From Trichlorobacter lovleyi SZ (GTDB taxonomy: Bacteria > Desulfobacterota > Desulfuromonadia > Geobacterales > Pseudopelobacteraceae): 32,000 bases of DNA. This document shows, in pieces, positions 3,066-30,478 of the stretch. Numbering within the stretch: position 1 is the first letter of the stretch; each line of letters begins with the position of its first letter. The stretch lies in contig NC_010814.1 of NCBI RefSeq assembly GCF_000020385.1, forward strand, positions 1,590,001 through 1,622,000. Reading direction: 5' to 3'. A program made the position numbers and the translations under genes. The notes under the pieces were generated by a model. The model worked only from the letters and a program-made list of their open reading frames with translations, had not been told where the DNA came from and did not search any database.

Positions 3066-3839
3066 ATGAATATTAAAGATTACGCGCCTGTTTTTATCGG
3101 GGGTGTTGGAGGAAGTGGAACAAGAGTGGTTACAGAAATCTTGAAAAAATCTGGCTTCTTTATGGGAAATAATCTGAATACTTCTAATGATTACCTTGAA
3201 TTTTCAAGACTTGGGGCTGGTTTGCGTCAACTCATGCAACTATATGGGAGTAAGACAAATACTGAAATATACAGCTATATTTTTGAAAAACTTGATGAAA
3301 TTACTGCATTAATGCAAACTGAGTTGTTAATGTCAGGTTGTAAATATAAAGGTTGGGGGTGGAAAACACCGCCTAATTTTATGATATTGGAAGAACTTGA
3401 AAAATACTATGGTAATATTAAATATATACATATTATCCGTGATGGACTTGATATGGCCTATAGTAGTAATTTAAACCAGATGAAGCTATGGGGATTCTAC
3501 TTTGGCATTAATTTAGAGAGCGGATTAACACCGCAGACTGCCTTAAAATATTGGTTGGCTGCGAATAAGTATGCCATAGAACTAGGTCATAACCTTTTGA
3601 GAGACAGGTTTTACTTGATTTCTTTTGAACAACTCTGCTGTGAAAAAGAAAAGGTTATTCGCGATTTGTTGAAATTTATTGAGGTGGAGCCGCTAGATAT
3701 TTCAGATTTGAGTGGATTGATAACACCGCCTGAAACAATAGGTAGATGCCAACAATACAGTTCTGATGTTTTTGATAATAATGATTTGGAAGAACTACAA
3801 AAAATCAGGCACTTGCTGCTTGAAAGTCCAATAAAGTGA
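3066..3839 (+). CDS. Sulfotransferase family protein (PAPS-dependent)
   Basis: N-terminal 5'-PSB-like P-loop PVFIGGVGGSGTRVV and a 3'-PB-like motif YIHIIRDGLDMAYS. RBS is GAGGAAAATATG. The region is low in GC. Confidence 0.75.
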   Translation: MNIKDYAPVFIGGVGGSGTRVVTEILKKSGFFMGNNLNTSNDYLEFSRLGAGLRQLMQLYGSKTNTEIYSYIFEKLDEITALMQTELLMSGCKYKGWGWKTPPNFMILEELEKYYGNIKYIHIIRDGLDMAYSSNLNQMKLWGFYFGINLESGLTPQTALKYWLAANKYAIELGHNLLRDRFYLISFEQLCCEKEKVIRDLLKFIEVEPLDISDLSGLITPPETIGRCQQYSSDVFDNNDLEELQKIRHLLLESPIK

Positions 3840-4063
3840 TAGATTCGCTAATTGCTTTCTTAGTTAGTATGCACTGCTGTCCCATAAATTGATTGAATAA
3901 AATCGGCCTTTGGGCGCATTAAAAACAGGCAAACAAAGTTAAAAAAGAGCTAAAAAACCAGAAACAGCTGAACTGAAAGCAACAAAGCAAACTCATAAAA
4001 CGACCGGTTGGTTGAAATGGACTCAAATCGAGTCGATTTTCAACGGCCTGTTAGAGAGTCTCT

Positions 4064-5542
4064 ATGCCAAAGTTAGATACTAAATTGCATCTTGATATGC
4101 TTCAAAATTCAAAAAAAGAAAATAAATTTGATGTTAATAGTGAAGTTTACGGTTTGCATTGGGGCGATCCTGAGACAGTGCCTCCGCTGAAGTATGTGCG
4201 TGATAGTTTCCTTTTGCCCTATATCACAACTTCAAGTACGGTTTTGGAGATTGGTGTTGGTGGCGGAAGATGGACGAGATATATGCTGAAAGCTAAGCAT
4301 CTATATGCAGTTGATTACCATGTTGAGCTGTTAGAAGAGCTTAAGCTGAATTATAATTATGATAATATGTCTTTTGTTTTAAATAATGGATATGACTTCC
4401 CAGGTGTCTTGAACCAAAGTGTTGATTTTATTTTTTCATTCGGGACATTCGTTCATTTGGATGTAGATATAATTAAAAAATATCTTATTAATATTAAATC
4501 AATACTAAAAGAAACTTCAAATGTTGTTATCCAGTATTCGGATATGAGGAAGCCGATGGCTCGGGCTTTAAAAGGATCTTTTTCTGAAAATGATCCTGAT
4601 ATTATGAAAAAACTCGTTAAGTCATGTGGATTTGAAATATATGAAGATGATGATCAAACATTATGGCATAGTGCAATAATTAGGTTTGGGCTTGTCAGCA
4701 AATCTATGATTTATGTTAATAATTTGTTTTATAAAGAGCAGCCAAACATTTTATTGCTGACATATGATAGTTGTCGGTATGATACACTTAAAGTAGCCAA
4801 CACACCGGTTCTTGATTCTTTTGTAGATATTGTTTCAGCTCAGGCTCCTGCAAACTTTACCTATCCATCACATTGTGCATTCTTCTGTGGTATTTTGCCA
4901 AATTCAAGCCTAAACCAACCGTATATTAACCGTTTTAACCGGCAGCTTTTTGGAATCTCTGATGTTGGGGAGACCAACGTTGTTAAAAAATCGTACTTGA
5001 AGATTCAAAGTAACTCAAATTTTGTTGATGGGCTAAGAGGTGCTGGATATCAGACGATTGGCTGTGGCGCAATGAATTGGTTTCGACAAGAAACGCTAAC
5101 CTCTTGTTTTGAAGACTATTTGTATACTGGTACAGATGCTGACAGCCAGATTGACTTTCTTCTTGCAAATCTCGACCCTTCAAGAAAGTTCTTCGGTTTT
5201 ATCAATTTTGGCGAAACGCATGCGCCTTTCTTTTATAAAGGTAAGAAAGATACATGCCCCGTAGATGTTCGTGCACGTATAATCAAATGGCCACCATGTG
5301 AAAGTCCTGGACCTGTCGGGCAAGCCAACGAGGCGTTTAGACACCAGGTGGAGGCCGCAGAGTTTTTAGATAGTAGATTAGCACGGCTTTTCTCTTCTGT
5401 TCCCTCTAACACCATTGTGGTTTTATGCGCAGATCATGGAGAGTGCTTTGGAGAGGATGGGTACTGGGGGCATGGTTTTAATCATCCAAAGGTGCTTGAA
5501 GTGCCCCTAGCTATTTTTAGACTAGACGGCAAGTTAATTTAA
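4064..5542 (+). CDS. Fusion protein: class I SAM-dependent methyltransferase (aa ~1-210) plus alkaline-phosphatase-superfamily (sulfatase-like) domain (aa ~225-492)
   Basis: Methyltransferase motif I VLEIGVGGGRWTRY and post-I/II motifs LYAVDY and VDFIFSFGTFVHL. The C-terminal half has NILLLTYDSCRYDT (metal-ligand Asp next to Ser/Cys) and CADHGECFGEDGYWGHG (the DHG...H metal site typical of sulfatase/AlkP-like enzymes). It is a single uninterrupted frame. Confidence 0.7.
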   Translation: MPKLDTKLHLDMLQNSKKENKFDVNSEVYGLHWGDPETVPPLKYVRDSFLLPYITTSSTVLEIGVGGGRWTRYMLKAKHLYAVDYHVELLEELKLNYNYDNMSFVLNNGYDFPGVLNQSVDFIFSFGTFVHLDVDIIKKYLINIKSILKETSNVVIQYSDMRKPMARALKGSFSENDPDIMKKLVKSCGFEIYEDDDQTLWHSAIIRFGLVSKSMIYVNNLFYKEQPNILLLTYDSCRYDTLKVANTPVLDSFVDIVSAQAPANFTYPSHCAFFCGILPNSSLNQPYINRFNRQLFGISDVGETNVVKKSYLKIQSNSNFVDGLRGAGYQTIGCGAMNWFRQETLTSCFEDYLYTGTDADSQIDFLLANLDPSRKFFGFINFGETHAPFFYKGKKDTCPVDVRARIIKWPPCESPGPVGQANEAFRHQVEAAEFLDSRLARLFSSVPSNTIVVLCADHGECFGEDGYWGHGFNHPKVLEVPLAIFRLDGKLI

Positions 5543-5558
5543 CGGTTTGGAGTGCTTG

Positions 5559-6395
5559 ATGAAGTTGGTAATGACCCTTTTGGTTCGTAATGAAGAAGAT
5601 ATTATTGAAGCTAATCTTGATTTCCATCTGAGTCAGGGCGTGGACTTTTTTGTTATAACGGATAATGCTTCTGGCGATAAAACACCTGATATTTTGCGAA
5701 AGTATGTTCTGGCAGGCAAAGCGCATGTCATTAACGAACCGCAGGATGACTATTCTCAGGATCTTTGGGTTACCCGTATGGCTAGAATGGCAGCGGTGGA
5801 GTATGGTGCCGACTGGGTAATTAACAACGATGCAGACGAATTTTGGTGGCCAAAGGCTGGTTCATTGCGTGATGTTTTCAGCTCTATAGGAGATGAATTT
5901 AATGTGGTTGAAGCTCATCGTTACAACTTTCCTCCCCTTAAAGGCTCTAACAATAACACACCTTTCTGGCAAAGATCATGTATTCGAGAAGTTGTGTCAA
6001 AGAATGCAGTTGGAAATATCTTACCGCCAAAGACAGCACACAGGGCGTTCTCAGATGCGTCTGTCGCTCAAGGAAATCATTCGGTTTCATTTGCCCAAAC
6101 ATCTGTAAAAATACTGAACTCGAATCCAATTGTTATATTTCATTACCCAATGAGGTCATACGAACAGTTCGAGTCTAAAATTAAATTGGGCGGGGCAGCG
6201 TATGAACGCAATACCAGACTCTCACCCCAAGTGGGTATCACATGGCGCAGCTTATATGAAGACTATAAGCAGAATAGATTAGTAGGGTATTATTCTAAAG
6301 AAGAGCTCACAGATGACCAGATTATCTCAGGTATCGATAACGGTATTTATGTACGTGATATTCGTTTGTGTGAATATTTCACTACCCAAATTTGA
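5559..6395 (+). CDS. Glycosyltransferase family 2-like protein (Glyco_tranf_2_4-type)
   Basis: N-terminus KLVMTLLVRNEEDIIEANLDFHLSQGVDFFVITDNASGDKTPDIL and a DxD-like NNDADEF. I prefer the ATG at 5559 (GGAG 5 nt upstream) over the TTG at 5547 in the ORF track. Confidence 0.55.
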   Translation: MKLVMTLLVRNEEDIIEANLDFHLSQGVDFFVITDNASGDKTPDILRKYVLAGKAHVINEPQDDYSQDLWVTRMARMAAVEYGADWVINNDADEFWWPKAGSLRDVFSSIGDEFNVVEAHRYNFPPLKGSNNNTPFWQRSCIREVVSKNAVGNILPPKTAHRAFSDASVAQGNHSVSFAQTSVKILNSNPIVIFHYPMRSYEQFESKIKLGGAAYERNTRLSPQVGITWRSLYEDYKQNRLVGYYSKEELTDDQIISGIDNGIYVRDIRLCEYFTTQI

Positions 6396-6446
6396 CTGCG
6401 TTTGCAATCTAATGTATACCGAGATATTGTTGAATCCCCATTTTGA

Positions 6447-7622
6447 ATGCCAAGGATGTCTCCAGTGCTATCAACCGAGCCAACCGACTCACAACCGTCG
6501 AACCCTTCATTGCTTTTTCGCATTATTAATCGTCTGCGTGGCATAAATCGGCTTTTTTTGCTGGCGGTGTTTCTGCCCACGACAGTCGCTATCATCTACT
6601 TTGGATTTTTTGCCTCGGATATCTATATTTCAGAATCCCGCTTTGTTATTCGCAGTCCCCAAAAACAGACCCCCACCGGATTGGGAGCCTTTCTGCAAGG
6701 TGCAGGTTTCTCAAAGTCTCAAGATGATACTTACACGGTGCATGATTTTATTAACTCGCGTGATGCCCTGCAACAGTTGAATCAAAAATATGGCTTGTCA
6801 AGTCTCTACGCCAGTAGGGGAATTGACCGTCTCAGCCGGTTTGGCGGGTTGGACTCTGATACCAGTAACGAGGCGTTGCATCGATATTATCAAAAGAAAA
6901 TAGTCGAGGTCAGCAATGATAGTGCTTCATCGATTACGACCCTGCGGGTAAAGTCTTTTACTGCAGCTGACGCCCGCAGTCTGAATGCCAGTTTGCTGGA
7001 AATGAGTGAAAAACTGGTGAATCAGCTGAATGAACGTGGACGTCAGGACCTGATCATGTTTGCCCAATCAGAGGTGGCTACTGCTGAGGCAAAGGCCAGG
7101 GCAGCTGCCTTGGCGTTATCGAGCTATCGCAATAAAAAAGGGGTGTTTGATCCGGAGAAGCAATCGGCTCTGCAACTGCAACAGATTTCTAAATTGCAGG
7201 ATGAGCTGATTGCAGCCAAAACGCAGTTGGCCCAGGTTCGCTCGGTTACCCACAACAATCCCCAGCTACCCGTCCTGCAAAAACGTATAGATGTACTACA
7301 GGCAGAAATTTCTGTTGAAACAGCAAAAGTGGCAGGGGGGGATCGTTCGTTAAGTGGTCAGGCCGCAGAGTATGAGCGTCTGGCGCTTGAGCGTAGCTTT
7401 GCGGATAAACAGCTTGCAGCAGCGTTGGCGTCACTTGAGCAGGCACGCAATGAGGCCCAGCGCAAGCAGTTGTATCTTGAACGGATAGTGCAACCCAGCC
7501 TGCCGGATTACCCGGTGGAGCCGAAGCGGTTACGGTCCATCGTTTCGACCTTTGCGGTGGGGATGATCTGTTGGGGAATTTTGACCATGCTGATTGCCGG
7601 TGTGCGGGAACATCATAATTAA
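6447..7622 (+). CDS. kpsE: Capsule polysaccharide export inner-membrane protein (PCP-3 family, KpsE/CtrB/BexC-like)
   Basis: N-terminal TM helix followed by IYFGFFASDIYISESRFVIRSP and DTYTVHDFINSRDAL. There is a long coiled-coil periplasmic region and a C-terminal TM helix (IVSTFAVGMICWGILTMLIAG). It lies immediately upstream of kpsM and kpsT. Confidence 0.85.
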   Translation: MPRMSPVLSTEPTDSQPSNPSLLFRIINRLRGINRLFLLAVFLPTTVAIIYFGFFASDIYISESRFVIRSPQKQTPTGLGAFLQGAGFSKSQDDTYTVHDFINSRDALQQLNQKYGLSSLYASRGIDRLSRFGGLDSDTSNEALHRYYQKKIVEVSNDSASSITTLRVKSFTAADARSLNASLLEMSEKLVNQLNERGRQDLIMFAQSEVATAEAKARAAALALSSYRNKKGVFDPEKQSALQLQQISKLQDELIAAKTQLAQVRSVTHNNPQLPVLQKRIDVLQAEISVETAKVAGGDRSLSGQAAEYERLALERSFADKQLAAALASLEQARNEAQRKQLYLERIVQPSLPDYPVEPKRLRSIVSTFAVGMICWGILTMLIAGVREHHN

Positions 7623-7641
7623 GCAAGGATGAACAAGACTG

Positions 7642-7693
7642 GAGGCAAAGATTGCCTCTGTGTATCTCCGTGCCTCAGTGCGAGGCAGTTTTT
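7642..7693 (+). promoter_or_regulatory. Two hairpins built from the same hexamer; the second resembles a weak intrinsic terminator or attenuator between kpsE and kpsM
   Basis: GAGGCAA (7642-7648) pairs with TTGCCTC (7652-7658) across a 3-nt loop. TGCCTC (7671-7676) pairs with GAGGCA (7682-7687) across a 5-nt loop, followed by G + TTTTT (7689-7693). AGGAG at 7696-7700 is the RBS for the ATG at 7711. Confidence 0.35.
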
Positions 7694-7710
7694 GTAGGAG
7701 TTTTGTATAT

Positions 7711-8526
7711 ATGACCTTTTCCGAAGGTAAAGCACCCCAATATTCCTCCACGTTGCTACGCTCATTCCAGATCCAGCTGCGGGTGATCGGCGCCCTGCTG
7801 ATGCGTGAGGTGCTTACCCGCTATGGCCGCCACAATATCGGTTTTTTGTGGGTATTTGTTGAGCCGATGATTTTTACGTTGGGTGTAACTGCGCTTTGGA
7901 CTTTTGCTAAAATGCATCACAACTCCAGTATTCCGATTGTTGCCTTTGCCGTTACGGGTTATTCTTCAGTGCTGCTGTGGCGTAATATGCCTAACCGTTG
8001 TGTTGGTTCTATAGAGCCTAATCTTGCACTTATGTATCATCGAAACGTAAAGGTTATTGATGTTTTTGCTGCTCGAGTGTTGCTTGAAGCAGTTGGGGCT
8101 TCAACTTCTTTTATTATCTTGTCAGTTGTTTTTATTTCAATTGGCTGGATGCAGTATCCTCAGGATATTTTTAAGGTTCTGACTGGATGGTGCATGTTAG
8201 CATGGTTCGGTGCTTCAATTGCGGTTTTGATGGGAAGTCTCAATGAACGGACAGAAGTTGTTGAAAAACTCTGGCATCCTGCTACTTATCTGCTATTTCC
8301 GTTGTCAGGTGCCGCTTTTATGGTTGATTGGCTGCCTCCCACGGCACAAAAAATTATCCTGTTTTTACCAATGGTGCATGGTGTAGAAATTCTGCGTGAA
8401 GGTTATTTTGGTTCTCTTGTCCGGTCCCACTACAGTATTTCTTATATGGCTTCCGTTTGCTTGATCCTAAATGCACTTGCGCTTGCCCAGGAAAGGTATG
8501 TGAGTAAGAGGATAATCCCAGAATGA
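7711..8526 (+). CDS. kpsM: Capsule polysaccharide ABC transporter permease (ABC-2 type)
   Basis: Multi-TM ABC-2 permease with [24 protein letters not shown] near the N-terminus. The start is set at the ATG at 7711 (AGGAG 10 nt upstream) rather than the GTG at 7660. It overlaps kpsT by ATGA. Confidence 0.85.
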
Positions 8527-9173
8527 TTTGGATTAGAGATGTGGTAAAAAAATATTCTACCCGTCACGGCGTTGTAACTGTGCTTGATAATGTCAATTTG
8601 GACATCAATAAAGGAGAAAAAATTGGGATTTTAGGCAGAAATGGTGCTGGCAAGTCAACTCTTATCAGGCTTATCAGTGGTGCAGAGAAACCCACATCCG
8701 GGACAGTTCATTGGGGCATGAGTATTTCCTGGCCATTAGCTTTTACTGGAGGATTTCAGGGAAGTCTAACCGGATTAGATAATTTGAAGTTTATTTGTCG
8801 CATATATGGCATAGATGCAAGTAGTAAAATAGACTATATACAAGAGTTTTCTGAATTGGGTAGGTATTTGTACGAACCTCTTAAGACTTATTCTTCAGGG
8901 ATGCGTGCACGTTTAGCCTTTGCTCTTTCTATGGCAATTGATTTTGATTGTTTCTTGATTGATGAAGTGGTCGCCGTGGGAGATAGCCGATTTCATGAAA
9001 GGTGTAAACATGAGTTGTTTGAAAAGCGCAAGGAGAAAACCATGATTATTGTGTCACATCAATCCGATTTTATTAAGGCTCATTGTACTCGTGCTGCCGT
9101 GTTAGTAGCTGGTCGGATTCACCAGTTTGAGCAGGTAGATGAGGCTATGTCATTTTATCATGAGCATCTTTAA
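8523..9173 (+). CDS. kpsT: Capsule polysaccharide ABC transporter ATP-binding protein
   Basis: Walker [13 protein letters not shown] signature YSSGMRARL, Walker B CFLIDE and H-loop VSHQ. At 216 aa it has no C-terminal carbohydrate-binding extension. Confidence 0.9.
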
Positions 9174-9203
9174 AACAACTTTTAATGTTGCAAGGATACT
9201 TTG

Positions 9204-11777: not shown

Positions 11778-11781
11778 GATC

Positions 11782-12948
11782 ATGAATATTCTTTTTGTGG
11801 CATATTCCCAACTTAACTGCAACAGTGGTATTCATATCTTCAGTCTTGCAAATAACCTGGTGGAACTGGGGCATACGTGTGCTGTATGTGTGCCCGATCA
11901 ACCAGAGGCAACCGGCGACATCGGGACACCACGGTTTGCCACACTGTTGCTGGATCAGATCAAAGACAGACCGCTCATGTTCCCTGATGGCAGAGGTGCT
12001 GATGTAATCCACGCTTGGACACCTCGAGAGCTGGTGCGCCGTACTACTGAAAACCTGCTAAAACTTTACTCCTGTCCCTATTTTGTCCATCTTGAAGACA
12101 ATGAACAACACCTCACAGAACTCCATACTCGTATTTCAATCGCTCAGATGGCTAGATTGTCGTATGAAGAGCTTGATGCGCGTATCCCTTTGCACCTGAG
12201 TCACCCCCTTCGATCCCAGGATTTTCTGGCGGGTGCTGCCGGTGTAACCGTGCTTATTGATAAACTTCTTACGAATGTACCGCAAGAAGTTCCGGGATGC
12301 GTTATCTGGCCTTCATTTGATGAATCTCTTAACTGGGCGATACCCTGCGATAATAAGTTAAGGAGAGAGATCGGCATTGCTTCGACCGATTATGTGATTA
12401 CCTATACCGGCAATGTCCATTCAGCGAATCGCAGCGAGGTTCTTAGTCTGTATATAGCAGTTGCTCTACTGAACAGGAGTGGTGTAACCACTAAACTGGT
12501 CCGCACTGGCAGTGATTATATACCCTTATGCGATGCCGTTGGAATGGCAGAGTTCGAAACGTTTCTTATCGAACTTGGTTTTATTCCGAGAAAGGATATG
12601 CCAAAGGTGCTCTCTATTGCAGATGTTTTAGTTCAACCTGGTCGATCTGACAATTTTAACGATTACAGGTTCCCGTCAAAACTGCCGGAATATTTTGCAA
12701 GTGGAAAACCTGTTCTCATTCCGGCAACAAATATAGGACGATATGTAAAGGATTCAGTGGATTGCATTCTGCTTAAGCGCGGTGATGCGTGTGAGATCGC
12801 CACTCAACTGATGTCACTATTACCGGATGTGGAACGCCGCCGACAGCTCGGCACGAATGCGCTTGAGTTTGCCAGGCTATATTTTAGCTGGCAGAAGAGT
12901 TCCAAAATCCTAGCCGACTTCTACACCACTAAGAGGAATGATACATGA
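11782..12948 (+). CDS. Glycosyltransferase family 4 (GT-B, 'group 1')
   Basis: N-terminus MNILFVAYSQLNCNSGIHIFSLANNLVELGH and a C-terminal nucleotide-sugar-binding region FPSKLPEYFASGKPVLIPATNIG. The ATG at 11782 lies 5 nt after the upstream stop. The stop overlaps the next gene's start (ATGA). Confidence 0.75.
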   Translation: MNILFVAYSQLNCNSGIHIFSLANNLVELGHTCAVCVPDQPEATGDIGTPRFATLLLDQIKDRPLMFPDGRGADVIHAWTPRELVRRTTENLLKLYSCPYFVHLEDNEQHLTELHTRISIAQMARLSYEELDARIPLHLSHPLRSQDFLAGAAGVTVLIDKLLTNVPQEVPGCVIWPSFDESLNWAIPCDNKLRREIGIASTDYVITYTGNVHSANRSEVLSLYIAVALLNRSGVTTKLVRTGSDYIPLCDAVGMAEFETFLIELGFIPRKDMPKVLSIADVLVQPGRSDNFNDYRFPSKLPEYFASGKPVLIPATNIGRYVKDSVDCILLKRGDACEIATQLMSLLPDVERRRQLGTNALEFARLYFSWQKSSKILADFYTTKRNDT

Positions 12949-19729: not shown

Positions 19730-19757
19730 TTGCTGTTATTTCGGAGCCATAACTGAC

Positions 19758-22606: not shown

Positions 22607-22669
22607 ATGTGGTAGACAGGGACGAAGGCTGAAGGAATTATGATTGAGATTGGGAGAGTTAAACGCACT

Positions 22670-23833
22670 ATGAACCTGATACCCGCAAGATTACTCGCTA
22701 TATTTACGTTAAGCCTGTTGCTTTCCGGCTGTGTAGGCTGGCTGCCATCGTCCGGTCCAAGTGTCAGTGAGGTAAAGGATGCTGCAGGAAGTCAGCGATT
22801 GTCCGGTATTCAGCTGGTTGACCTGAATGATTCGGTGGCGCGCCGTTTGTTGGCACAACGTAAACAGGAACTGTTTTCCGAAAAAATCGGCGTTGGCAAA
22901 CCGGTAAATTGGCTGATTGGTGTCGGTGATGTGGTTGAGGTCTCGGTTTGGGAGGCCCCCCCCGGAACTCTTTTTTCTCCTTCAATGAGTGATTTAAAGT
23001 CAGCCCCGGCTTCTTCACGGGTGACTCCGTTTCCGGAGCAGATGGTTGATAGTGACGGGCTGATAACCATACCGTTTGCCGGCAAGATCATGGTTGCTGG
23101 GCGCTCGCCCCAGCAGGTTGAAGCCGATATTGTCGAGCGCCTGAAGGGGCTGGCAAACCAGCCGCAGGTACTGGTGCGTGTGCTGCGAAACAACTACGCA
23201 ACGGTGACGGTAGTAGGAGAGGTGGCAAACAGTTCTAGAATCCCGCTGACTCCAAGGGGAGAACGGCTGCTGGATGCCCTTGCTTCCGCAGGTGGCGTAC
23301 GACAGCCGGTAAACAAGATGACGGTACAGGTGACCCGTGGTGATCTGGTGCAGTCCATGCCCCTTGAAACGGTAATCAGGGATCCCCGCCAGAACATTAC
23401 ACTGCAGCCCGGAGATGTCCTGACGGCTTTGTATCAGCCCTCCAGCTTTACCATTCTTGGGGCTACCGGAAAAAACGAAGAGGTTAATTTTGAGGCGCAG
23501 GGTATATCACTTGCCCAGGCTCTGGCCCGTGGGGGCGGGCTGCAGGACTCCCGTGCCAACGCGCAGGGGGTGTTTGTCTTCCGGCTTGAGTCTGCAGATG
23601 CGCTGGATTGGCCCGCTAAACCAGTTCGCACTACGCCGGATGGTAAGGTGCCGGTCATTTACCGGGCTGATCTGAATGATCCGGCCAGCTTTTTCATAGC
23701 ACAGTCATTTCCGGTGCATAACAAGGATGTACTGTATGTGGCCAATGCTCCATCGGTGGAGCTGCAAAAATTTCTTAATATCATCATGACGTTGGCCTAT
23801 CCGGTAATTAATGTGATTCCGCTGACTCGCTAG
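22670..23833 (+). CDS. Outer-membrane polysaccharide export (OPX) lipoprotein, Wza/CtrA/KpsD family
   Basis: Lipobox LLLSGC. Poly_export-like GVGDVVEVSVWEAP. SLBB-like TVTVVGEVANSSRIPLTPRGERLLDALASAGG and ITLQPGDVL. There is a C-terminal amphipathic/hydrophobic helix. The start is set at the ATG at 22670 (MNLIPARLL), just ahead of the signal sequence. Confidence 0.8.
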   Translation: MNLIPARLLAIFTLSLLLSGCVGWLPSSGPSVSEVKDAAGSQRLSGIQLVDLNDSVARRLLAQRKQELFSEKIGVGKPVNWLIGVGDVVEVSVWEAPPGTLFSPSMSDLKSAPASSRVTPFPEQMVDSDGLITIPFAGKIMVAGRSPQQVEADIVERLKGLANQPQVLVRVLRNNYATVTVVGEVANSSRIPLTPRGERLLDALASAGGVRQPVNKMTVQVTRGDLVQSMPLETVIRDPRQNITLQPGDVLTALYQPSSFTILGATGKNEEVNFEAQGISLAQALARGGGLQDSRANAQGVFVFRLESADALDWPAKPVRTTPDGKVPVIYRADLNDPASFFIAQSFPVHNKDVLYVANAPSVELQKFLNIIMTLAYPVINVIPLTR

Positions 23834-23834
23834 C

Positions 23835-25001
23835 ATGAAGAATGCTCTCCCCTTTCTGATCGATGTATCCCGCCTGGTAGGCAGGCTGATGAAAGGGCGG
23901 CTACCCACTGGAGTTGACCGGGTGGCTCTTGCATATGTCAGGCAGTATGGTGATCGGTCACGGGCCTTTGTTCGTGAGGGACGTTTTCATATTGTTTTAA
24001 ACGAAAAACTTTCGTATTCCCTGTTTCATTTGCTGCTTGCTCCGCCGGATGATTTCAAGGCTCAGGCCTGGCGGCTGATTGCCCAGGGGGCTGCCGCCGG
24101 TATCCGCCAACGTGATCTGAGCGGTTCTGTTTTTCTGAACATCGGGCACAGTGGTCTTGAATATCACCGCTATCCAGACCTGCTGAAAAAAATGAAGGTT
24201 AAGCCTGTTTTCCTGGTGCATGACCTGATTCCGATCACCCATCCTGAATACTGCCGTACCGGTGAAGGGGAACGCCATCGGGTCAGGATGAAGACCGTGC
24301 TGGAACTGGCTCAAGGGGTGATAACCAACTCTCGGGCCACCCTGGATGAACTGGCCCGTTTTGCCGATGTTCTGGGAATGCAACTGCCACCTGCACAGCC
24401 AGCCTTTCTGGCGCCTCCTGCCTTTACCAACTTTGGTTTGCCACGTCCGGTTGCACGTCCGTACTTTGTTGTGCTTGGTACCATTGAGCCACGTAAAAAT
24501 CATCTACTGGTGCTGCAGGTTTGGAAACGTCTGGTAGAGCAGTGGGGAGATCAAGCACCGCTGTTGGTGCTGATTGGCCAACGGGGCTGGGAGTGCGAGA
24601 ATGTAGTTGATCTGCTTGAACGTTGCGAGGCACTTAAAAGCCATATTATTGAACGTGCCTCCTGTTCGGACGCTGAGCTTGTCACCTGGCTCCAGCATGC
24701 CCAGGCTCTGCTGTTTCCCTCCTTTACAGAGGGGTTTGGCCTGCCGCTGGTAGAGGCCTTGGCATGCGGTACACCAGTTATAGCCAGTAACCTGCAGGTT
24801 TTTGCCGAGATTGCCGGTGATCTGCCGGACTACTGTGATCCGCTGGACGCCCTGGGCTGGCTGGAGTTGGTTGCTGACTACAGCAGCCCAGGCAGTCAGA
24901 AACGGACGGCGCAACTACAACGAATCACTAACTACAAACCTCCCACCTGGCAGGAGCATTTCAATAAAGTGGAACTACTATTAAGACAGATTGTGAGCTG
25001 A
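23835..25001 (+). CDS. Glycosyltransferase family 4 (GT-B)
   Basis: N-terminus IDVSRLVGRLMKGRLPTGVDRVALAY and the EX7E region FPSFTEGFGLPLVEALACGTPVIASN. Confidence 0.8.
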   Translation: MKNALPFLIDVSRLVGRLMKGRLPTGVDRVALAYVRQYGDRSRAFVREGRFHIVLNEKLSYSLFHLLLAPPDDFKAQAWRLIAQGAAAGIRQRDLSGSVFLNIGHSGLEYHRYPDLLKKMKVKPVFLVHDLIPITHPEYCRTGEGERHRVRMKTVLELAQGVITNSRATLDELARFADVLGMQLPPAQPAFLAPPAFTNFGLPRPVARPYFVVLGTIEPRKNHLLVLQVWKRLVEQWGDQAPLLVLIGQRGWECENVVDLLERCEALKSHIIERASCSDAELVTWLQHAQALLFPSFTEGFGLPLVEALACGTPVIASNLQVFAEIAGDLPDYCDPLDALGWLELVADYSSPGSQKRTAQLQRITNYKPPTWQEHFNKVELLLRQIVS

Positions 25002-25085
25002 GACGGCAGAAACTATCTGAAGGTGTTTGCGGTGTGCCCGGTTGCGTATTGGGGAAAGCTGTGTATAAAGCTAACAGGATCGTTC

Positions 25086-26126
25086 ATGTCTCTTGATACC
25101 CCGCTCATACCTCCGATGGTGTATGCGCTTGATTTTTCCCATTGGAAGAAGGCAAGTCTGCGTTCTTTCTTTGCCGGCAGTCAGGTACGGTTTGTTACAC
25201 AGATCACGCAGGTTCCTGCAGGTTCAACCCTGGCGGTATGGGGATGCAGAGAGCTGCCCGGCTTGGCTGATAATATAACTGTTATTCGGCTGGAAGATGG
25301 CTTTATCCGCTCTGTTGGTCTTGGGGCTGATCTGACCCGTCCGGTGTCGTGGGTGGTTGATCGGCAGGGGATCTACTTTGATGCCACCCGCCCCTCAGAC
25401 CTTGAAGAACTGTTGCTGACCACAGCTTTTTCCGATGACTTGTGCAGGCGGGCAGCGCAGTTGCGTGAACGTCTGGTGGCAGTTGGCCTTACCAAGTACA
25501 ACCTATCCGGTCGCAGATGGCAGCGGCCTGACACTGATAGGCCGGTCATTCTGGTGCCGGGTCAGGTGGAATCAGATGCCTCGCTGGCCTATGGGGCACC
25601 CGGTATTAAAACTAATATGGGGCTGCTGCAGGCGGTGCGGGCAGCCTATTTAGATGCCTACCTGATTTACAAACCCCATCCAGATGTACTGGCAGGCCTG
25701 CGGGCCAAAGGGCGGGCTGAGGATCAGGCCCTGACCTGGTGCGATGAACAGATAACAGATGTTGCCATGGGGGAGTTGTTGCCTCTGATTGATGAACTGC
25801 ACACCATGACATCGTTAACCGGCTTTGAGGCGTTACTGCGGGGGAAAAAAGTGACCTGTTACGGTCAGCCTTTTTACTGCAGCTGGGGATTGACAACAGA
25901 CTTGCTGCCGGTTGCTCGTCGGTCCCGCAGATTGACATTGGATGAACTGGTCGCCGGCAGCCTGCTGCTGTATCCTCGTTATATGAGCAGAACCAGTGGT
26001 CAGTTGATCACTGCAGAGCAGGCCCTTGAAGAACTTTTAACCTGGCGTGAGCAGATGCCTGAAACCGCGACGCTCTGGACCAGGCTTAAAAGAACTGTGC
26101 TTCGTCTTGTTGTGGGAGTCAGATAA
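25086..26126 (+). CDS. kpsC: KpsC/LipA-like capsule beta-Kdo transferase, single catalytic domain (~346 aa)
   Basis: VIRLEDGFIRSVGLG, GIYFDATRPSDLE, a QxxxD motif (PGQVESDASL), an HP motif (IYKPHPDVLAG) and TSLTGFEALLRGKKVTCYGQPFYCSWGLT all align with my memory of the N-terminal half of E. coli KpsC. I prefer the ATG at 25086 (AGGA 7 nt upstream) to the GTG at 25023. It abuts kpsS (TAA then ATG). Confidence 0.8.
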   Translation: MSLDTPLIPPMVYALDFSHWKKASLRSFFAGSQVRFVTQITQVPAGSTLAVWGCRELPGLADNITVIRLEDGFIRSVGLGADLTRPVSWVVDRQGIYFDATRPSDLEELLLTTAFSDDLCRRAAQLRERLVAVGLTKYNLSGRRWQRPDTDRPVILVPGQVESDASLAYGAPGIKTNMGLLQAVRAAYLDAYLIYKPHPDVLAGLRAKGRAEDQALTWCDEQITDVAMGELLPLIDELHTMTSLTGFEALLRGKKVTCYGQPFYCSWGLTTDLLPVARRSRRLTLDELVAGSLLLYPRYMSRTSGQLITAEQALEELLTWREQMPETATLWTRLKRTVLRLVVGVR

Positions 26127-27353
26127 ATGGAGCTGCGTCGTTTTCTGTTGTTACAGGGGGTTTGCTCCCCTTTTTTTGCCTGTCTGGCAGAGCGGTTGAT
26201 CCGAGAAGGACACCGCGTTCATAAAATCAACTTTAATGGTGGTGATGCTGCCTATTGGCGGGGGATGCCTGCCCGGTCATTTCGTGGACCGGTTACTGAC
26301 TTGCCTGTTTTTCTTAAAAGTACGTTTCAGGAACATCAGATCAGCGATATTGTCCTGTTTGGTGATCGGCGCCCTGTCCATACATCCGCTGTACAACTGG
26401 CACAATCAAGCAGCATTCGTGTCCATGTCTTTGAGGAAGGGTATTTCCGTCCCCATTGGGTGACCCTTGAGCGGGACGGGGTGAATGCCCATTCCCTGCT
26501 GCCCCGTGATCCTGTCTGGTATCGCGAAATTGGTAAACAGCTTGGTGATAGTCTTGTCACAGAGCCATTTCAGACAACCCTCCGAATCAGGGCCACCCAT
26601 GATGTCCTCTATCACCTCGCAAGTGCTGTCAATCCGCTGCTGTATCCAGGGTATCGCACCCATGCGCCTTGCATTGCACCGCTCATGTATGCCGGCTATG
26701 TCCGGCGTTTTGCCCTGAAGCCGCTGCATGAACGACGAGATACTGTGCTTGTCAATCAGTTGATCAGTTCACAAACTCCCTATTATCTCCTGCCGTTACA
26801 GCTGAACAGTGATGCCCAGATTCGTGATCACTCAAACTTCAAAGATATGGCTGATGTGATGGCCTTTGTGATGGCTTCGTTTGCCCTGCATGCGCCTGCA
26901 GGCAGCCGCTTGGTGATCAAGAATCATCCGCTTGATATGGGTCTGGTCAACTATCCACGCATCATTGCAGAACTTGAGGCACATTACGGTGTTACCGGCA
27001 GGGTAGACTACCTGGAAACCGGTAACCTTGAGGCTCTGGTGCAGCATGCCCGGGGAACAGTTACGGTTAACAGCACGGTGGGTGGGGTTGCATTACAGTA
27101 CAGCTGCCCCACCATAACGCTCAGTGATCCGATCTATAATCTGGCTGGCCTGACCTTTCAGGGAGAGCTGGATAGCTTCTGGCAGCATGCAGAACCGCCT
27201 GATCAGGAGCTGTTCCGCTGTTTTAAGGCAACAGTAATTCAGTCCACCCAGATTAACGGAGGTTTTTACTGCGTCCGTGGAATTGATCTGGCAGTGAAAA
27301 ATTCCATTAACCGTTTAACTGCTGATTGCTCTCCACTTGAGGAGTTGTTGTGA
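26127..27353 (+). CDS. kpsS: KpsS/LipB-like capsule beta-Kdo transferase (initiates the lipid-linked Kdo linker)
   Basis: FLLLQGVCSPFF...INFNGGDAAYW, VLFGDRRPVH, VFEEGYFRPHWVTLERDGVNAHSLLPRDP, QxxxD (LQLNSDAQI) and HP (IKNHPLD) motifs. Confidence 0.85.
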   Translation: MELRRFLLLQGVCSPFFACLAERLIREGHRVHKINFNGGDAAYWRGMPARSFRGPVTDLPVFLKSTFQEHQISDIVLFGDRRPVHTSAVQLAQSSSIRVHVFEEGYFRPHWVTLERDGVNAHSLLPRDPVWYREIGKQLGDSLVTEPFQTTLRIRATHDVLYHLASAVNPLLYPGYRTHAPCIAPLMYAGYVRRFALKPLHERRDTVLVNQLISSQTPYYLLPLQLNSDAQIRDHSNFKDMADVMAFVMASFALHAPAGSRLVIKNHPLDMGLVNYPRIIAELEAHYGVTGRVDYLETGNLEALVQHARGTVTVNSTVGGVALQYSCPTITLSDPIYNLAGLTFQGELDSFWQHAEPPDQELFRCFKATVIQSTQINGGFYCVRGIDLAVKNSINRLTADCSPLEELL

Positions 27354-28117
27354 GCTGGGCCCAGCCAAAAACGATTCTGATTACCGGTGCAACCGGTGCC
27401 ATTGGCAGCGCATTAGCTGAACAGTATGCTACTTCTGGCGTGACACTGCTTCTGTTTGGGCGTGACGAGTTGAAGCTTGGACAGTTGGCAGGTCGTTGCC
27501 GGAGCCTGGGCGCACAGGTTGTGACACTCGTCTGTGATCTGGCCGATCATCGTTGTTTTATGGAGCAATTACAGCAGATCTGTGAACAAAACTGCCCGGA
27601 TCTGGTGATTGCCAATGCCGGTGTCAGTAGCACCGCTGATAAGGATGGTGAGTCCTGGCAGGCGATTGAAGAGGTGGTGGCGGTAAATATGTTGGCTGCC
27701 ATGGCTACGGTGCAGATGGTTGTTCCGTTCATGCGGCAGCAGGGCAGGGGACAGATCGCCCTGATCAGCTCGCTGGCTGCCTGGTACGGCCTGCCGGTTA
27801 CCCCGGCATACTCTGCCAGTAAGGCAGCCATCAAGAACTATGGCGAAGCGTTGCGTGCCGGCCTTGCCCCTGAGGGAATCAGCGTGTCGGTTGTCATGCC
27901 CGGCTTTGTCAGTTCTGCCATGTCCCGCACCGTGCCAGGCCCAAAACCGTTTCAGATGAGTGCAGAACAGGCTGCACAAGCCATTAGCAAGGGCCTGGTA
28001 AAAGGCTGTTCCCGGATCAGCTTCCCGTTTCCGCTTAATCTGGGCTGCTGGGTGCTGGCTGTGCTGCCTTCAGCACTGTCCGGTTGGTTGGTCAAGAGGC
28101 TGGGCTACCGTGCATAA
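27350..28117 (+). CDS. Short-chain dehydrogenase/reductase (classical SDR) with hydrophobic C-terminal tail
   Basis: TGATGAIGSALA (TGxxxGxG), NAGV, the catalytic YSASK, and PGFVSS. The GTG start overlaps the kpsS stop (GTGA). Confidence 0.85.
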   Translation: MSWAQPKTILITGATGAIGSALAEQYATSGVTLLLFGRDELKLGQLAGRCRSLGAQVVTLVCDLADHRCFMEQLQQICEQNCPDLVIANAGVSSTADKDGESWQAIEEVVAVNMLAAMATVQMVVPFMRQQGRGQIALISSLAAWYGLPVTPAYSASKAAIKNYGEALRAGLAPEGISVSVVMPGFVSSAMSRTVPGPKPFQMSAEQAAQAISKGLVKGCSRISFPFPLNLGCWVLAVLPSALSGWLVKRLGYRA

Positions 28118-29657
28118 AGCGTTGTTAATCAGTATCGGCCTGCCGCTTGCCTGTTGCCTTACCTTCTCGTTTGCGCTGGAACTGCTGTTGGTCCCTCGCC
28201 CTGTCTGGCCGTGGCAACGTCCGGTGGTCGCCGTAATGTTGCACAAGGGTCTCTGTCTGCTTTTGTTTGCCCCGCTGCTTCTGTTGCTTCAACGCCCATG
28301 GTTCTGCTGTATCAGCATCCTGGCCCTGCAGGTTCTGGTGATAATGATCAGTAACGCCAAATATCACTCTCTGCAGGAACCGTTCATTTATCAGGATTTC
28401 AGCTATTTTGTCGATGCCCTGCGCTTTCCCCGGCTCTATCTGCCGTTTCTCGGGGCAGGACGGGCTGTGGTAGCCGCTGTTGCCTTTTGCGCTGCCATCT
28501 ATGGCGGTCTGGTGGTGGAGCAACCGCTTCATGCGGTGTACTCTTTTCGACAGATCAGTGGCGTGGCAGCGGTTTTAATCGGCGCCGGTTTGCTGTTGGT
28601 GTTACTTGGGGCCTCTGTCTGGTCAAGATTGAGCCTTGATCCGGTTATAGATCTGCAACAGCTGGGGCTGTTTGCCAGCCTTTGGGGCTATTGTCGGGCA
28701 GAGCAACAGACCTGGTCCGGTTACGCCAATCCTGTTTTCAGTCAAATCCCGGGCCAGCAGATAACCTCAACGCTGCCCAATCTGGTGGTAATCCAGAGTG
28801 AATCCTTTTTTGATCCCCGGCGCTGGTATGATGGAATAACGCCTGATCTGTTGCGCCATTTTGATGCTCTGAAGCAATCCTCGGTCAGTTTTGGCCTGCT
28901 GGAGGTACCGGCCTGGGGGGCCAACACCGTACGCACGGAATTTGCCTTCCTCTCCGGCATTGCCAATCATCTGCTCGGTATCCACCGTTTCAAGCCGTAT
29001 CGTCGGGTAGCACGCCAGGGGCTGCCAACGCTGCCGGGCTATCTCAAGAAACTTGGCTACCGTACGGTCTGTCTGCATCCGTATTCGTCCGGTTTTTATG
29101 ATCGCAAGACCGTCTTTCCACTCTTGGGGTTTGATGAATTTATTGATATCTCACGCTTTGTTGCTGCTGATTACAACGGCCAGTATGTGGGGGATGCTGC
29201 TGTCGGGCGGGTGCTTTGCGCAGAGCTGGCAAAACATGATGGTCCGGGTACTCAACCGCTTTTTATCTTCGTGATTACCATGGAGAATCATGGTCCTTTG
29301 CATCTTGAACAGCTCAGGCCGGAAGAACAGGAACCACTGCTGACCACTCCGTTGCCTGAGGGAGCTGATGATCTGCCAGTCTACCTGCGTCATCTTGCAC
29401 AGGCAGATCAGATGCTGGGTGTGGTGAAAGAGCAACTGACAGCCATGCGGCACGATGCTTGGCTCTGTCTCTACGGGGATCATCTGCCGATCATGCCGCA
29501 GGTTTACCGGCAACTGGGCGAACCGGATGGCACGGTGGATTATCTGGTCTGGGGAAACCGGCATCAGCAGGCGGGTACTCATGAGGTGCGTTTAGAGGTG
29601 GAACAGCTGGCACAGGAACTGTTGAAAAAATCCGGTCTGATGAAGGGGCTTGCATGA
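28110..29657 (+). CDS. LtaS/MdoB-like membrane protein: N-terminal polytopic domain plus sulfatase-fold (AlkP superfamily) transferase domain
   Basis: About 5 N-terminal TM helices, then LPNLVVIQSESFFDPR, WGANTVRTEFAFLSG (candidate nucleophile Thr), FVITMENHGP and LYGDHLP. The GTG start overlaps the SDR gene by 8 nt. Confidence 0.7.
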   Translation: MHKALLISIGLPLACCLTFSFALELLLVPRPVWPWQRPVVAVMLHKGLCLLLFAPLLLLLQRPWFCCISILALQVLVIMISNAKYHSLQEPFIYQDFSYFVDALRFPRLYLPFLGAGRAVVAAVAFCAAIYGGLVVEQPLHAVYSFRQISGVAAVLIGAGLLLVLLGASVWSRLSLDPVIDLQQLGLFASLWGYCRAEQQTWSGYANPVFSQIPGQQITSTLPNLVVIQSESFFDPRRWYDGITPDLLRHFDALKQSSVSFGLLEVPAWGANTVRTEFAFLSGIANHLLGIHRFKPYRRVARQGLPTLPGYLKKLGYRTVCLHPYSSGFYDRKTVFPLLGFDEFIDISRFVAADYNGQYVGDAAVGRVLCAELAKHDGPGTQPLFIFVITMENHGPLHLEQLRPEEQEPLLTTPLPEGADDLPVYLRHLAQADQMLGVVKEQLTAMRHDAWLCLYGDHLPIMPQVYRQLGEPDGTVDYLVWGNRHQQAGTHEVRLEVEQLAQELLKKSGLMKGLA

Positions 29658-30478
29658 GCCCCTCAGCCAAGCTGCGGATCATTTTCTGCACTACCCCCAG
29701 CATTTATTCAGATGTTGTTTTGCAGGAGCTTGTCAAATCTCCCCACGTGCAACTGGTGGGAGTGGTCGCCTCAACCCGGATTTTACGTAAAAACGGCTGG
29801 GGCTGGTGGGATGCTGTACGACTGGTGCGCAAGACCGGACTGCGTTACGCAACCTATCTCTGGACGGTAACAACGCTGTATAGTCTGTTGCGCCGTCTGT
29901 TGGTACCTGATGATCCGGTCAGGCAACATCTGCGAGAGCACCGGGTGCCGGTGCATGCCACCCGGGACATTAACAGCAGCGAGGGAGTTACTTTTGTTCA
30001 AAACCTGCAACCGGATCTGTTGCTGTCCGCCCACTTTAATCAGCTGATCGGATCTGTGTTGCTTGATCTGCCATCAGTTGGTTGTCTGAATATTCACCCC
30101 GGAGCGTTGCCGCAGTACAAGGGGGTTGATCCGGTGATTCATGCTCTGGACAGAGATGAACAGCGGGTGGGAGTGACACTGCATGTCCAGGATACCGGTT
30201 TTGATACCGGTGCAGTTCTTGCCTCGGCTGAAGCTGCAGTAGCTGCGGAAGATACGTTGTTTTCTGTAACTATGCGGCTTTTCAGGCGGGGGACAGGCCT
30301 GCTGCTTGATTGTCTGGCAGCGCATGGAGCTGTCTTGGAAGGGACTCCACAAGAAGCTGACGCTGCCTATGATTCATGGCCGGATAGCGGTTTGGTGGGG
30401 CGGCTGAGGAGCTCTGGCAGGAGGTTAATAGGTGTAAGGTTGTTTTGGGTTTGTCTACGGGGCAACAGCCTGGAATAA
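29654..30478 (+). CDS. Formyltransferase-family protein (Fmt/ArnA N-terminal-domain-like)
   Basis: The Formyl_trans_N catalytic triad context is present: LLLSAHFNQLIG (Asn) and CLNIHPGALPQYKGVDPVIHAL (His, Asp). The canonical Fmt C-terminal domain is not evident. It overlaps the upstream gene by ATGA. Confidence 0.65.
   Translation: MSPSAKLRIIFCTTPSIYSDVVLQELVKSPHVQLVGVVASTRILRKNGWGWWDAVRLVRKTGLRYATYLWTVTTLYSLLRRLLVPDDPVRQHLREHRVPVHATRDINSSEGVTFVQNLQPDLLLSAHFNQLIGSVLLDLPSVGCLNIHPGALPQYKGVDPVIHALDRDEQRVGVTLHVQDTGFDTGAVLASAEAAVAAEDTLFSVTMRLFRRGTGLLLDCLAAHGAVLEGTPQEADAAYDSWPDSGLVGRLRSSGRRLIGVRLFWVCLRGNSLE

Follow-up and report, generated by a model that had tools for sequence, protein, structure and literature searches.

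A predicted sulfated capsule locus in Trichlorobacter lovleyi SZ and a terminator-like sulfotransferase encoded in it

Introduction

Capsule loci of the kps type that carry genes for the synthesis of 3'-phosphoadenosine 5'-phosphosulfate (PAPS) together with sulfotransferase genes have been described for Cobetia marina KMM 1449 and Vibrio sp. KMM 8419. The C. marina cluster comprises kpsETMD, cysN/C, cysD, cysQ, a sulfate permease gene, kpsSC, wcbPQRT and a sulfotransferase gene, and the capsule contains Rha2S (PMC11766843). The Vibrio cluster comprises kpsT, kpsD, kpsM, kpsE, kpsS, second copies of cysC, cysN and cysD and three sulfotransferase genes; its sulfated capsule was chemically proven, and the authors regard PAPS genes and sulfotransferases in a polysaccharide cluster as a hallmark of sulfated polysaccharide synthesis (PMC11641403). 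A sulfated capsule is also on record for Mesorhizobium loti (Townsend et al., 2006, PMC1698228, as cited in PMC6113621). We analyzed 32,000 nt of the Trichlorobacter lovleyi SZ chromosome (NC_010814.1, positions 1,590,001-1,622,000), referred to here as the window, in which positions 3066-30478 hold a capsule locus with a PAPS synthesis block and two sulfotransferase genes, named ST1 and ST2. As predicted from its genes, this locus most likely makes a sulfated, probably methylated capsule that is anchored to lipid by 3-deoxy-D-manno-octulosonic acid (Kdo).

A sequence-only reading of the window had taken the presence of kps genes, a transporter, PAPS genes and sulfotransferases in one locus to be novel. 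This claim fails because kps loci of this kind with chemically proven sulfated capsules are already published (PMC11766843, PMC11641403), and the T. lovleyi locus is a known sulfated-capsule design in a new lineage and habitat. The new point concerns ST2, whose predicted structure suggests that one of the two sulfotransferases is built like a terminator that sets chain length.

Comparison With Described Systems

Compared by gene description, not by sequence, T. lovleyi resembles C. marina KMM 1449 in combining the export kps genes, kpsS/kpsC, a fused cysN/cysC, cysD, a (candidate) sulfate permease gene, a sulfotransferase gene, glycosyltransferase (GT) genes and a wcbPQRT-type lipid module. 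Cobetia has cysQ and genes for dTDP-Rha and GDP-Man synthesis, whereas the window has neither, and its kpsSC genes are divergent from kpsDMTE, whereas in T. lovleyi all genes from ST1 to the formyltransferase gene lie on one strand. T. lovleyi further differs in that its KpsC has a single module and that two methyltransferases and a coiled-coil sulfotransferase are encoded, and the host is an anaerobic freshwater member of the Desulfuromonadia rather than a marine gammaproteobacterium. With Vibrio sp. KMM 8419 the locus shares kps export genes, PAPS genes and sulfotransferases in one cluster. The cysCND genes of Vibrio are explicit second copies, whereas the T. lovleyi block appears to be vertically inherited, and the Vibrio cluster consists of 80 genes in five regions and is mixed with O-antigen genes.

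The capsule systems of Escherichia coli groups 2 and 3 and of Neisseria and Haemophilus have in common with T. lovleyi KpsM/KpsT, a KpsE-family adaptor, an outer-membrane polysaccharide export (OPX) protein, KpsS/KpsC and a serotype-specific centre between conserved parts. T. lovleyi differs from them in having one GT107 module in KpsC, a 397-aa Wza/CtrA-like OPX lipoprotein and no kpsF/kpsU, and in that its exporter genes lie in an exchangeable cassette and its PAPS genes inside the conserved part. In rhizobia (NodPQ) and M. loti, the PAPS used to sulfate secreted or surface glycans likewise comes from CysD- and CysNC-type enzymes; nodPQ are extra copies, often plasmid-borne and apart from kps, whereas the T. 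lovleyi block is chromosomal, ancient in the order and located within the capsule locus.

Predicted Capsule Pathway

The gene assignments are based on a listing of open reading frames (ORFs) in the window and on hidden Markov model (HMM) scans with Pfam and NCBIfam (Table 1). The scans agree with the sequence-only reading on KpsE, KpsM, KpsT, the OPX lipoprotein, KpsC and KpsS, and likewise on two sulfotransferases, two methyltransferase domains, an SLC13 permease, CysD and a fused CysN-CysC, all of them at the coordinates given there and on the plus strand, and both ST1 and ST2 match Sulfotransfer_3. Of eight window proteins looked up by exact sequence, six were matched, each to a T. lovleyi SZ protein; the accessions range from ACD95235 (ORF 3066) to ACD95253 (ORF 27350) and belong to a 3,917,761-bp replicon. 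Judged by this gene content, the locus is a kps-type capsule locus that depends on an ATP-binding cassette (ABC) transporter and is primed by KpsS/KpsC. The KpsC-like protein matches the KpsC structure 6mgd in the PDB (E 2e-84) and contains one GT107 module (346-367 aa), unlike the two-module KpsC of E. coli, and a PDB sequence search found no solved relatives of KpsS or of the fusion protein encoded at 4064.

A sulfated, probably methylated glycan is the best prediction for the product because PAPS synthesis genes, a candidate sulfate permease gene and two sulfotransferase genes are interleaved with the kps genes. In the proposed pathway, KpsS and the single-module KpsC-like enzyme would build a beta-Kdo primer on lipid, which the GT4 enzyme of the conserved backbone and the multi-module GT2/GT4 enzymes of the cassette would extend in the cytoplasm. 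The two S-adenosylmethionine (SAM) methyltransferases and the two PAPS-dependent sulfotransferases would decorate the chain, and KpsM, KpsT, KpsE and the OPX lipoprotein would export the polymer. PAPS would be supplied through the adjacent DASS permease, CysD and CysN-CysC, and removal of the by-product 3'-phosphoadenosine 5'-phosphate would require a CysQ gene outside the window. An acidic polysaccharide that is anchored to lipid, sulfated and probably methylated is the predicted product. Of the two sulfotransferases, ST1 would be the one more likely to modify the chain internally; the architecture of ST2 resembles that of chain terminators.

Several observations weigh against this prediction, which we nevertheless regard as the most probable one. 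The T. lovleyi capsule product is predicted from gene content, and KpsE, KpsM and KpsS score below the NCBIfam equivalog cutoffs, indicating homology and not curated equivalence. No cysQ (Inositol_P domain) was matched among the window ORFs. Nucleotide-sugar synthesis genes are also absent from the window. Sulfate import by the SLC13 permease is a candidate function inferred from the gene neighborhood only. In the 7-9 kb seen upstream of the PAPS block in two relatives, T. thiogenes (L093) and an ENA contig (L096), no sulfotransferase gene was found. Consensus scans for promoters and terminators in the window gave counts that did not differ from those in shuffled sequence and do not define the operon structure.

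The sequence-only reading had also described the locus as self-contained and as one operon with six GT genes. Because cysQ is missing from the window, the locus is not fully self-contained. The overlapping junctions that it listed (ATGA, TGATG and GTGA) are real and occur at 8523, 12945, 17951, 20663, 27350, 28110 and 29654. Gaps of 224, 162 and 90 bp and an IS110 insertion in a second strain speak against a single uninterrupted operon. Five GT genes were counted (5547, 9201, 11740, 15708 and 23835), with about seven GT modules. The absence of nucleotide-sugar genes, kpsF and kpsU was correctly noted; SIS and cytidylyltransferase domains (kpsF, kpsU) gave no match among the window ORFs. These CMP-Kdo supply genes belong in the locus in group 2 only. 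An in-locus kpsF/kpsU is not a defining feature of group 3 or of many systems outside E. coli.

T. lovleyi is used and monitored in the bioremediation of chlorinated solvents and uranium. If the prediction is true, a strongly anionic sulfated capsule would affect binding of metals and radionuclides, attachment to minerals and electrodes, and resistance to phages and predators. The words "sulfate" and "sulfotransferase" are absent from the 2012 genome paper (PMC3403914) and from a 2026 review.

Sulfate Activation Genes

The cysD and cysNC genes are situated between the GT2 gene at 15708 and the OPX gene. In a homologue list covering matches of at least 84% identity, CysD shows 90% identity to the protein of T. 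thiogenes and 84-86% to those of other Desulfuromonadales and Syntrophotalea. The gene order SLC13-cysD-cysNC is syntenic in T. thiogenes, the ENA relative, Syntrophotalea and a Desulfuromonas metagenome-assembled genome (MAG), and the permease gene adjoins cysD in all four Desulfuromonadales contexts that reach upstream of cysD (L013, L093, L095 and L096). In Syntrophotalea acetylenica the block lies next to Wzc, CpsB and Ugd genes, with cysQ, and in the Desulfuromonas MAG it is accompanied by cysQ, an epimerase gene and a Wzx gene. In a Thermodesulfobacteriota MAG (L014), no SLC13 match accompanies cysD-cysNC, whose neighbors are hldE, a HAD phosphatase gene and ugd.

Because of the CysD identity pattern and the synteny across the Desulfuromonadales, the PAPS block is, on this comparative evidence, old and vertically inherited. 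The genes had been likened to dedicated extra copies such as nodPQ; this comparison is not supported for a CysD that follows the species tree and a block that is syntenic across the order, and the vertical conservation of the block argues against a horizontally imported nodPQ-like PAPS cassette, a reading that was therefore rejected. SLC13, cysD and cysNC lie together with kpsC and kpsS in L093 and L096, and in other surface-glycan loci in S. acetylenica and the Desulfuromonas MAG. Since the block is kept in L093 and L096 without a visible sulfotransferase gene, it is not tied specifically to the cassette of T. lovleyi.

It is just as possible that these bacteria have no sulfate-activation system besides the PAPS block. 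According to this alternative, to which we give an even chance, SLC13-cysD-cysNC is an ordinary, possibly the only, sulfate-activation operon that serves cysteine synthesis too, and its position in the capsule locus goes back to an ancestor and does not mark a dedicated PAPS factory. Sulfation of the capsule would still be possible in that case, but the locus would not be independent of assimilation. The agreement of CysD with the species tree, the occurrence of the same block in different polysaccharide loci across the order and its retention in L093 and L096 with no sulfotransferase gene in view are in line with this explanation, as is the fact that most bacteria have a single cysDN. So is a sample of cysNC neighborhoods, consisting of the best 80 among at least 600 matches listed, from which T. 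lovleyi is absent and which does not represent the true nearest CysNC relatives: cysD-cysNC is nearly always a simple pair in this sample, and capsule genes (kpsC and kpsS) are nearby in only one of the 80 loci (Ideonella, L030). The company of the block in the order points the other way. Outside T. lovleyi, each of the five Desulfuromonadales contexts seen (L013, L014, L093, L095 and L096) has cysD-cysNC among surface-glycan genes, and in none of the five is cysH or a sulfite reductase gene beside it. L013 and L095 additionally have cysQ next to the block, and PAPS, the product of the fused APS kinase, is the donor for sulfotransferases. The steady presence of glycan genes around the PAPS block, together with its fused APS kinase, speaks for a part in sulfation. 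The chances that its PAPS supply is independent of assimilation appear about evenly balanced. A literature search returned nothing on sulfur assimilation in Geobacter or Trichlorobacter.

The PAPS made by the block might also act mainly as a signal controlling polysaccharide expression, as reported for Vibrio vulnificus brp, and not as sulfuryl donor. This is highly improbable given that the same locus encodes two intact sulfotransferases with conserved PAPS-binding motifs and contains no regulator gene. Under the preferred reading, in which PAPS serves sulfation of the glycan, sulfated envelope glycans may be common in anaerobes of the Desulfuromonadales (five loci from four or more lineages), because the SLC13-cysD-cysNC block sits in surface-glycan loci in the sampled contexts of this order.

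A small gene of the 23S_rRNA_IVP family was observed between cysD and cysNC, or after cysNC, in three relatives (L093 10194-10544, L096 11144-11533 and L095 13236-13613). T. lovleyi SZ has no such gene at this place, and its cysD and cysNC overlap by 1 base.

The Sulfotransferase ST2

By sequence and predicted structure, both ST1 and ST2 are bona fide PAPS-type sulfotransferases. The Pfam match of ST2 is marginal (Sulfotransfer_3, E 2.4e-6) and covers the N-terminal third only. However, the motif HRSGTS (H24, R25, S26, G27, T28, S29) and residues R147, P149 and S155 are invariant in an alignment of 42 sequences. The AlphaFold model of ST2 has a mean predicted local distance difference test score of 82 and includes a C-terminal helix of about 170 residues. 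In a Foldseek search with this model, all significant PDB matches were PAPS sulfotransferases, namely tyrosylprotein sulfotransferase (TPST), CurM, OLS and heparan sulfate 3-O-sulfotransferase (3-OST). The structural matches of ST1 and ST2 are weak, with 11-16% identity, and reflect the fold. Run against PDB sequences, the ST2 family profile matched coiled-coil proteins only, a result that is informative only for the coiled coil.

The predicted coiled coil contains an 84-bp tandem repeat of 1.9 copies (window positions 15307-15467, plus strand; Tandem Repeats Finder), which encodes 28-aa units. In another strain of T. lovleyi, the ST2 protein (P0008, 563 aa) lacks exactly one 28-aa unit and is otherwise identical.

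The family to which the sulfotransferase domain of ST2 belongs is very large: a cutoff of E <= 0.001 yields 19,040 cluster representatives, and one of E <= 1e-30 yields 4,936. Of the best 150 representatives, 142 have the domain at the N-terminus and 55 are at least 1000 aa long. In each of the ten long homologues that were scanned, the sulfotransferase domain is followed by one to three GT modules (GT2, GT4, RgpF, WsaF). The ST2 of the window is a protein of its own, with GT genes on either side of its gene. Among 28 metagenome loci of at least 10 kb around ST2-family genes, 13 encode a KpsT- or Wzt-like ATPase, and in eight metagenome loci the ST2-family gene is immediately preceded, on the same strand, by a gene for a 440-483-aa ATPase with a Wzt_C domain (E 1e-22 to 1e-30). 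The order of a Wzt_C ATPase gene followed by an ST2-family gene is the same as that in E. coli O9a, which has wzm-wzt-wbdD.

ST2 resembles the coiled-coil terminators WbdD, WbbB and the enzymes of Klebsiella pneumoniae O4 and O7 (PMC11231755) in its N-terminal catalytic domain, its beta-sandwich and its long C-terminal helix, and its homologues resemble them in carrying C-terminal GT modules and in being encoded directly after wzt (Wzt_C) genes. The caps added by these known terminators are methyl, methyl-phosphate and Kdo (PMC11231755). Because of the ST2 architecture, the fusions to GT modules and the adjacency to genes for Wzt ATPases with a carbohydrate-binding module (CBM), we tentatively propose that ST2-type enzymes might cap chains at the non-reducing end with a sulfate ester in ABC-transporter-dependent pathways, a possibility that is on balance doubtful. 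In such a role, the coiled coil of ST2 would be a molecular ruler, polymorphism of the 28-residue (four-heptad) repeat would tune capsule chain length between strains, and for the Wzt-CBM-linked members the transporter would recognize the sulfate cap as the signal for export. In contrast to the known terminator systems, the KpsT of the window has no carbohydrate-binding module (Pfam and NCBIfam scans found no Wzt_C match in it), which counts against the terminator function of ST2, and a sulfate cap has not been described for the known enzymes. The helix could also be only a docking element. A literature search found no paper mentioning both WbdD and sulfotransferases.

If the proposal is true, sulfate would be a fourth kind of terminator besides methyl, methyl-phosphate and Kdo. 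If confirmed, it would mean that a very large unannotated sulfotransferase-domain family adds a capping chemistry to a well-studied assembly pathway, and the ST2-type family would be a genomic marker for bacterial producers of sulfated polysaccharides. This side result could outweigh the locus itself in importance.

Mosaic Structure of the Locus

Capsule genes of T. lovleyi were already flagged in the 2012 genome paper as part of "genomic island M", and the mean GC content of the genome is 54.8% (PMC3403914). Within the locus, GC content is 43.5% in the cassette (3066-17950), 48.2% in the PAPS block and 54.0% from the OPX gene to the formyltransferase gene. The backbone SLC13-cysD-cysNC-OPX-GT4-kpsC-kpsS is kept in T. 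thiogenes (L093) and in the ENA contig (L096) with 79-91% protein identity (SLC13 about 90%, CysD 89-91%, CysNC 81%, OPX 86%, GT4 85%, KpsC 79-83% and KpsS 79-85%). The genes upstream of SLC13 all differ in L093 and L096; methyltransferases, epimerases and further GTs are encoded there, and L096 also has a Wzt_C-type ATPase. On the basis of GC content and gene order, the locus is a mosaic of a lineage-conserved backbone, which includes the PAPS block, and a lower-GC exchangeable cassette with exporter, polymerase and sulfotransferase genes.

In L096 (1283-3963) the gene directly after that of the Wzt_C-type ATPase encodes a methyltransferase of 410 aa, which is a WbdD-like order. One backbone thus accommodates cassettes that differ in their exporters and putative terminators. 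Three phage-tail-collar (Collar) genes and a Big_3_5 gene were observed between the backbone GT4 gene and kpsC in both relatives (L093 15109-18218, L096 16249-19357) and are absent from the T. lovleyi window.

ST1 carries the motifs GGSGTR and IIRDGLDMAYSS (RDG...S), and its PDB matches are weak (TPST1 and the OLS and CurM sulfotransferases). Among 495 ST1 homologues, the named ones are mostly from Bacillales, with 36-40% identity. ST1 and the adjacent gene at 4064, which encodes a methyltransferase fused to an alkaline-phosphatase-superfamily domain (MT-AP), occupy 3066-5542 and have 35-38% GC and about 31% GC at third codon positions, compared with 54.8% for the genome. The low GC content and the Bacillales origin of the closest named ST1 homologues suggest a distant donor of the ST1/MT-AP region.

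In a relative (L177) the left arm is conserved and consists of a homologue of the gene at 2216 (hyp-2216), ST1 (81%), an extra sulfotransferase gene, MT-AP (74%), GT2 (81%), a third gene with a sulfotransferase domain and, after some inserted genes, KpsE (85%). The gap that matches window positions 3840-4063 holds the extra sulfotransferase gene (213 aa) and a 73-aa ORF in L177. The second T. lovleyi strain (GCA_050171295.1) is 99.6% identical from window position 4052 on, and its IS110-family transposase gene sits between ST1 and the 4064 gene (L001 1-210).

Lipid Module at the Right End

The alpha-oxoamine synthase (AOS) gene that faces the capsule genes is the last gene of a convergent operon, so that the locus extends past 30478. 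Upstream of it, beyond the window, lies a gene for a 2547-aa, fully reducing type I polyketide synthase (PKS) with the domains KS-AT-DH-ER-KR-ACP (L007 2356-9999). Together with the short-chain dehydrogenase/reductase (SDR), the LtaS-like protein and the formyltransferase-like protein, PKS and AOS look like a wcbPQRT-like pathway for a sphingoid-like amino-lipid, as judged from gene classes. The sequence-only reading had overlooked this module. A wcbPQRT-type "capsule lipid" module next to kpsSC is described in the Cobetia study (PMC11766843). Likened by gene classes and not by Wcb sequences, and as far as that study refers to it, the wcbP/Q/R/T set of Burkholderia pseudomallei has in common with T. 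lovleyi an SDR, a sulfatase-family protein, a type I PKS and a pyridoxal phosphate-dependent acyltransferase beside kpsS and kpsC; the formyltransferase-like gene is extra in T. lovleyi.

The presence of a fully reducing PKS, AOS, SDR and a phosphotransferase-like protein raises the alternative that the sulfotransferases act on a PKS-derived amino-lipid, or on a protein, giving a sulfolipid and not a sulfated glycan. The nearest solved structures of ST1 and ST2 are indeed the PKS-associated OLS/CurM sulfotransferases and tyrosylprotein sulfotransferases, but at the identities given above these matches are at the level of the fold. ST1 and ST2 are about 27 and 15 kb away from the lipid genes (30489 on), both inside the exchangeable glycan cassette. 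ST1 travels with a GT2 and KpsE, and the domain of the ST2 family occurs in fusions with GT2, GT4, RgpF and WsaF modules and beside Wzt genes. We consider a lipid or protein acceptor very improbable and a glycan the likelier acceptor for both enzymes.

Features of the Locus and Flanking Genes

The coordinates and best matches of all features are given in Table 1. Besides the values listed there, the MT-AP fusion protein matches Methyltransf_25 (4e-11), Sulfatase (9.6e-8) and the NF038075 model of the STM4013 family (1.8e-35).

Table 1. Predicted features of the T. lovleyi SZ capsule locus and adjoining lipid gene, in window coordinates.
Feature	Coordinates	Strand	Matches and remarks
ST1, stand-alone PAPS-type sulfotransferase, 257 aa, 35% GC	3066..3839	+	Sulfotransfer_3 E 6.8e-16
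MT-AP, SAM methyltransferase (residues ~50-175) fused to alkaline-phosphatase-superfamily domain (STM4013 family, ~225-485)	4064..5542	+	
GT2/GT92-like glycosyltransferase	5547..6395	+	Glyco_tranf_2_4 8.2e-13; Glyco_transf_92 3.8e-6
KpsE, PCP-3 inner-membrane adaptor	6447..7622	+	TIGR01010 BexC/CtrB/KpsE 3.9e-115, full-length, 385 bits vs cutoff 437
KpsM, ABC-2 permease	7660..8526	+	ABC2_membrane 3.3e-10; KpsM model NF050053 1.9e-30
KpsT, 216-aa ABC ATPase	8523..9173	+	ABC_tran 1.6e-19; TagH and Wzt-type models 1e-44 to 2e-39
Dual-module GT2, candidate polymerase, ~330-aa non-GT N-terminus	9201..11777	+	two Glycos_transf_2 stretches, 3.5e-46
GT4 glycosyltransferase	11740..12948	+	Glyco_trans_1_4 1.3e-9
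SAM methyltransferase	12945..13679	+	Methyltransf_23 3.3e-8
ST2: sulfotransferase (residues 12-290), beta-sandwich (300-420), long helix/coiled coil (421-590)	13842..15617	+	
Second dual-module GT2	15708..17954	+	two Glycos_transf_2 stretches, 2e-17; GT2-like region also at residues 229-345
DASS/SLC13-type permease with two TrkA_C, candidate sulfate importer	17951..19729	+	CitMHS 2.4e-73; TrkA_C 2.5e-24; Na_sulph_symp 5.5e-18
CysD, ATP sulfurylase small subunit	19689..20663	+	NF009214 2.4e-164, 546 bits, above cutoff; likely start 19758
CysN-CysC fusion (ATP sulfurylase GTPase subunit + APS kinase)	20663..22606	+	NF004035 1018 bits vs cutoff 715; APS_kinase 4.7e-68
OPX outer-membrane export lipoprotein, Wza/CtrA-like	22640..23833	+	Poly_export 1.8e-19; SLBB_2 1.1e-17; lipobox LLSGC
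Backbone GT4, kept in relatives	23835..25001	+	Glycos_transf_1 1.9e-20; 85% identity in L093 and L096
Single-module KpsC-like beta-Kdo transferase	25023..26126	+	Capsule_synth 2.7e-32; likely start 25086
KpsS, beta-Kdo transferase starting lipid-linked primer	26127..27353	+	Capsule_synth 1.6e-78; KpsS model NF050054 1.4e-86
SDR oxidoreductase, WcbP-like position	27350..28117	+	adh_short 4.7e-40
Membrane protein, LtaS/phosphotransferase-type Sulfatase domain	28110..29657	+	Sulfatase 2.6e-37; LtaS model 9.4e-6; N-terminal 200 aa hydrophobic
Formyltransferase-like protein	29654..30478	+	Formyl_trans_N 1.4e-21; Fmt 4e-24, ArnA-N 5e-21
Alpha-oxoamine synthase (BioF/Kbl/serine palmitoyltransferase (SPT) family)	30489..31826	-	TIGR00858 5.5e-104; SPT models 3e-87

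Two of the listed proteins have Sulfatase Pfam matches that could be read as desulfation functions. This reading was rejected for the C-terminus of the 4064 protein, in the sequence of which no CxPxR sulfatase motif was found and which matches the STM4013 hydrolase family, and for the 28110 protein, a membrane protein whose LtaS match is weak. From their domain matches, the two are more plausibly phosphotransferases or hydrolases of the alkaline phosphatase superfamily.

The hyp-2216 gene (2216-2938) encodes a 240-aa secreted protein without a family match and is found together with ST1 in each of the relatives seen (L002, L177-L179). The only hairpin with a T-run that was spotted by eye is GC-rich, is followed by seven T residues and lies 3' of this gene (2975-3010); the terminator scan overlooked it, probably owing to its 9-nt loop. 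Because of the hairpin terminator and the lack of a family match, hyp-2216 was not counted as a member of the locus. Further to the left, positions 64-2016 encode an SLBB-domain protein similar to the C-terminal portion of a polysaccharide export protein. A VanZ-like ORF overlaps the SLBB ORF in another frame, and a PAP2 phosphatase is encoded as well. These genes may be remnants or parts of another envelope-glycan system.

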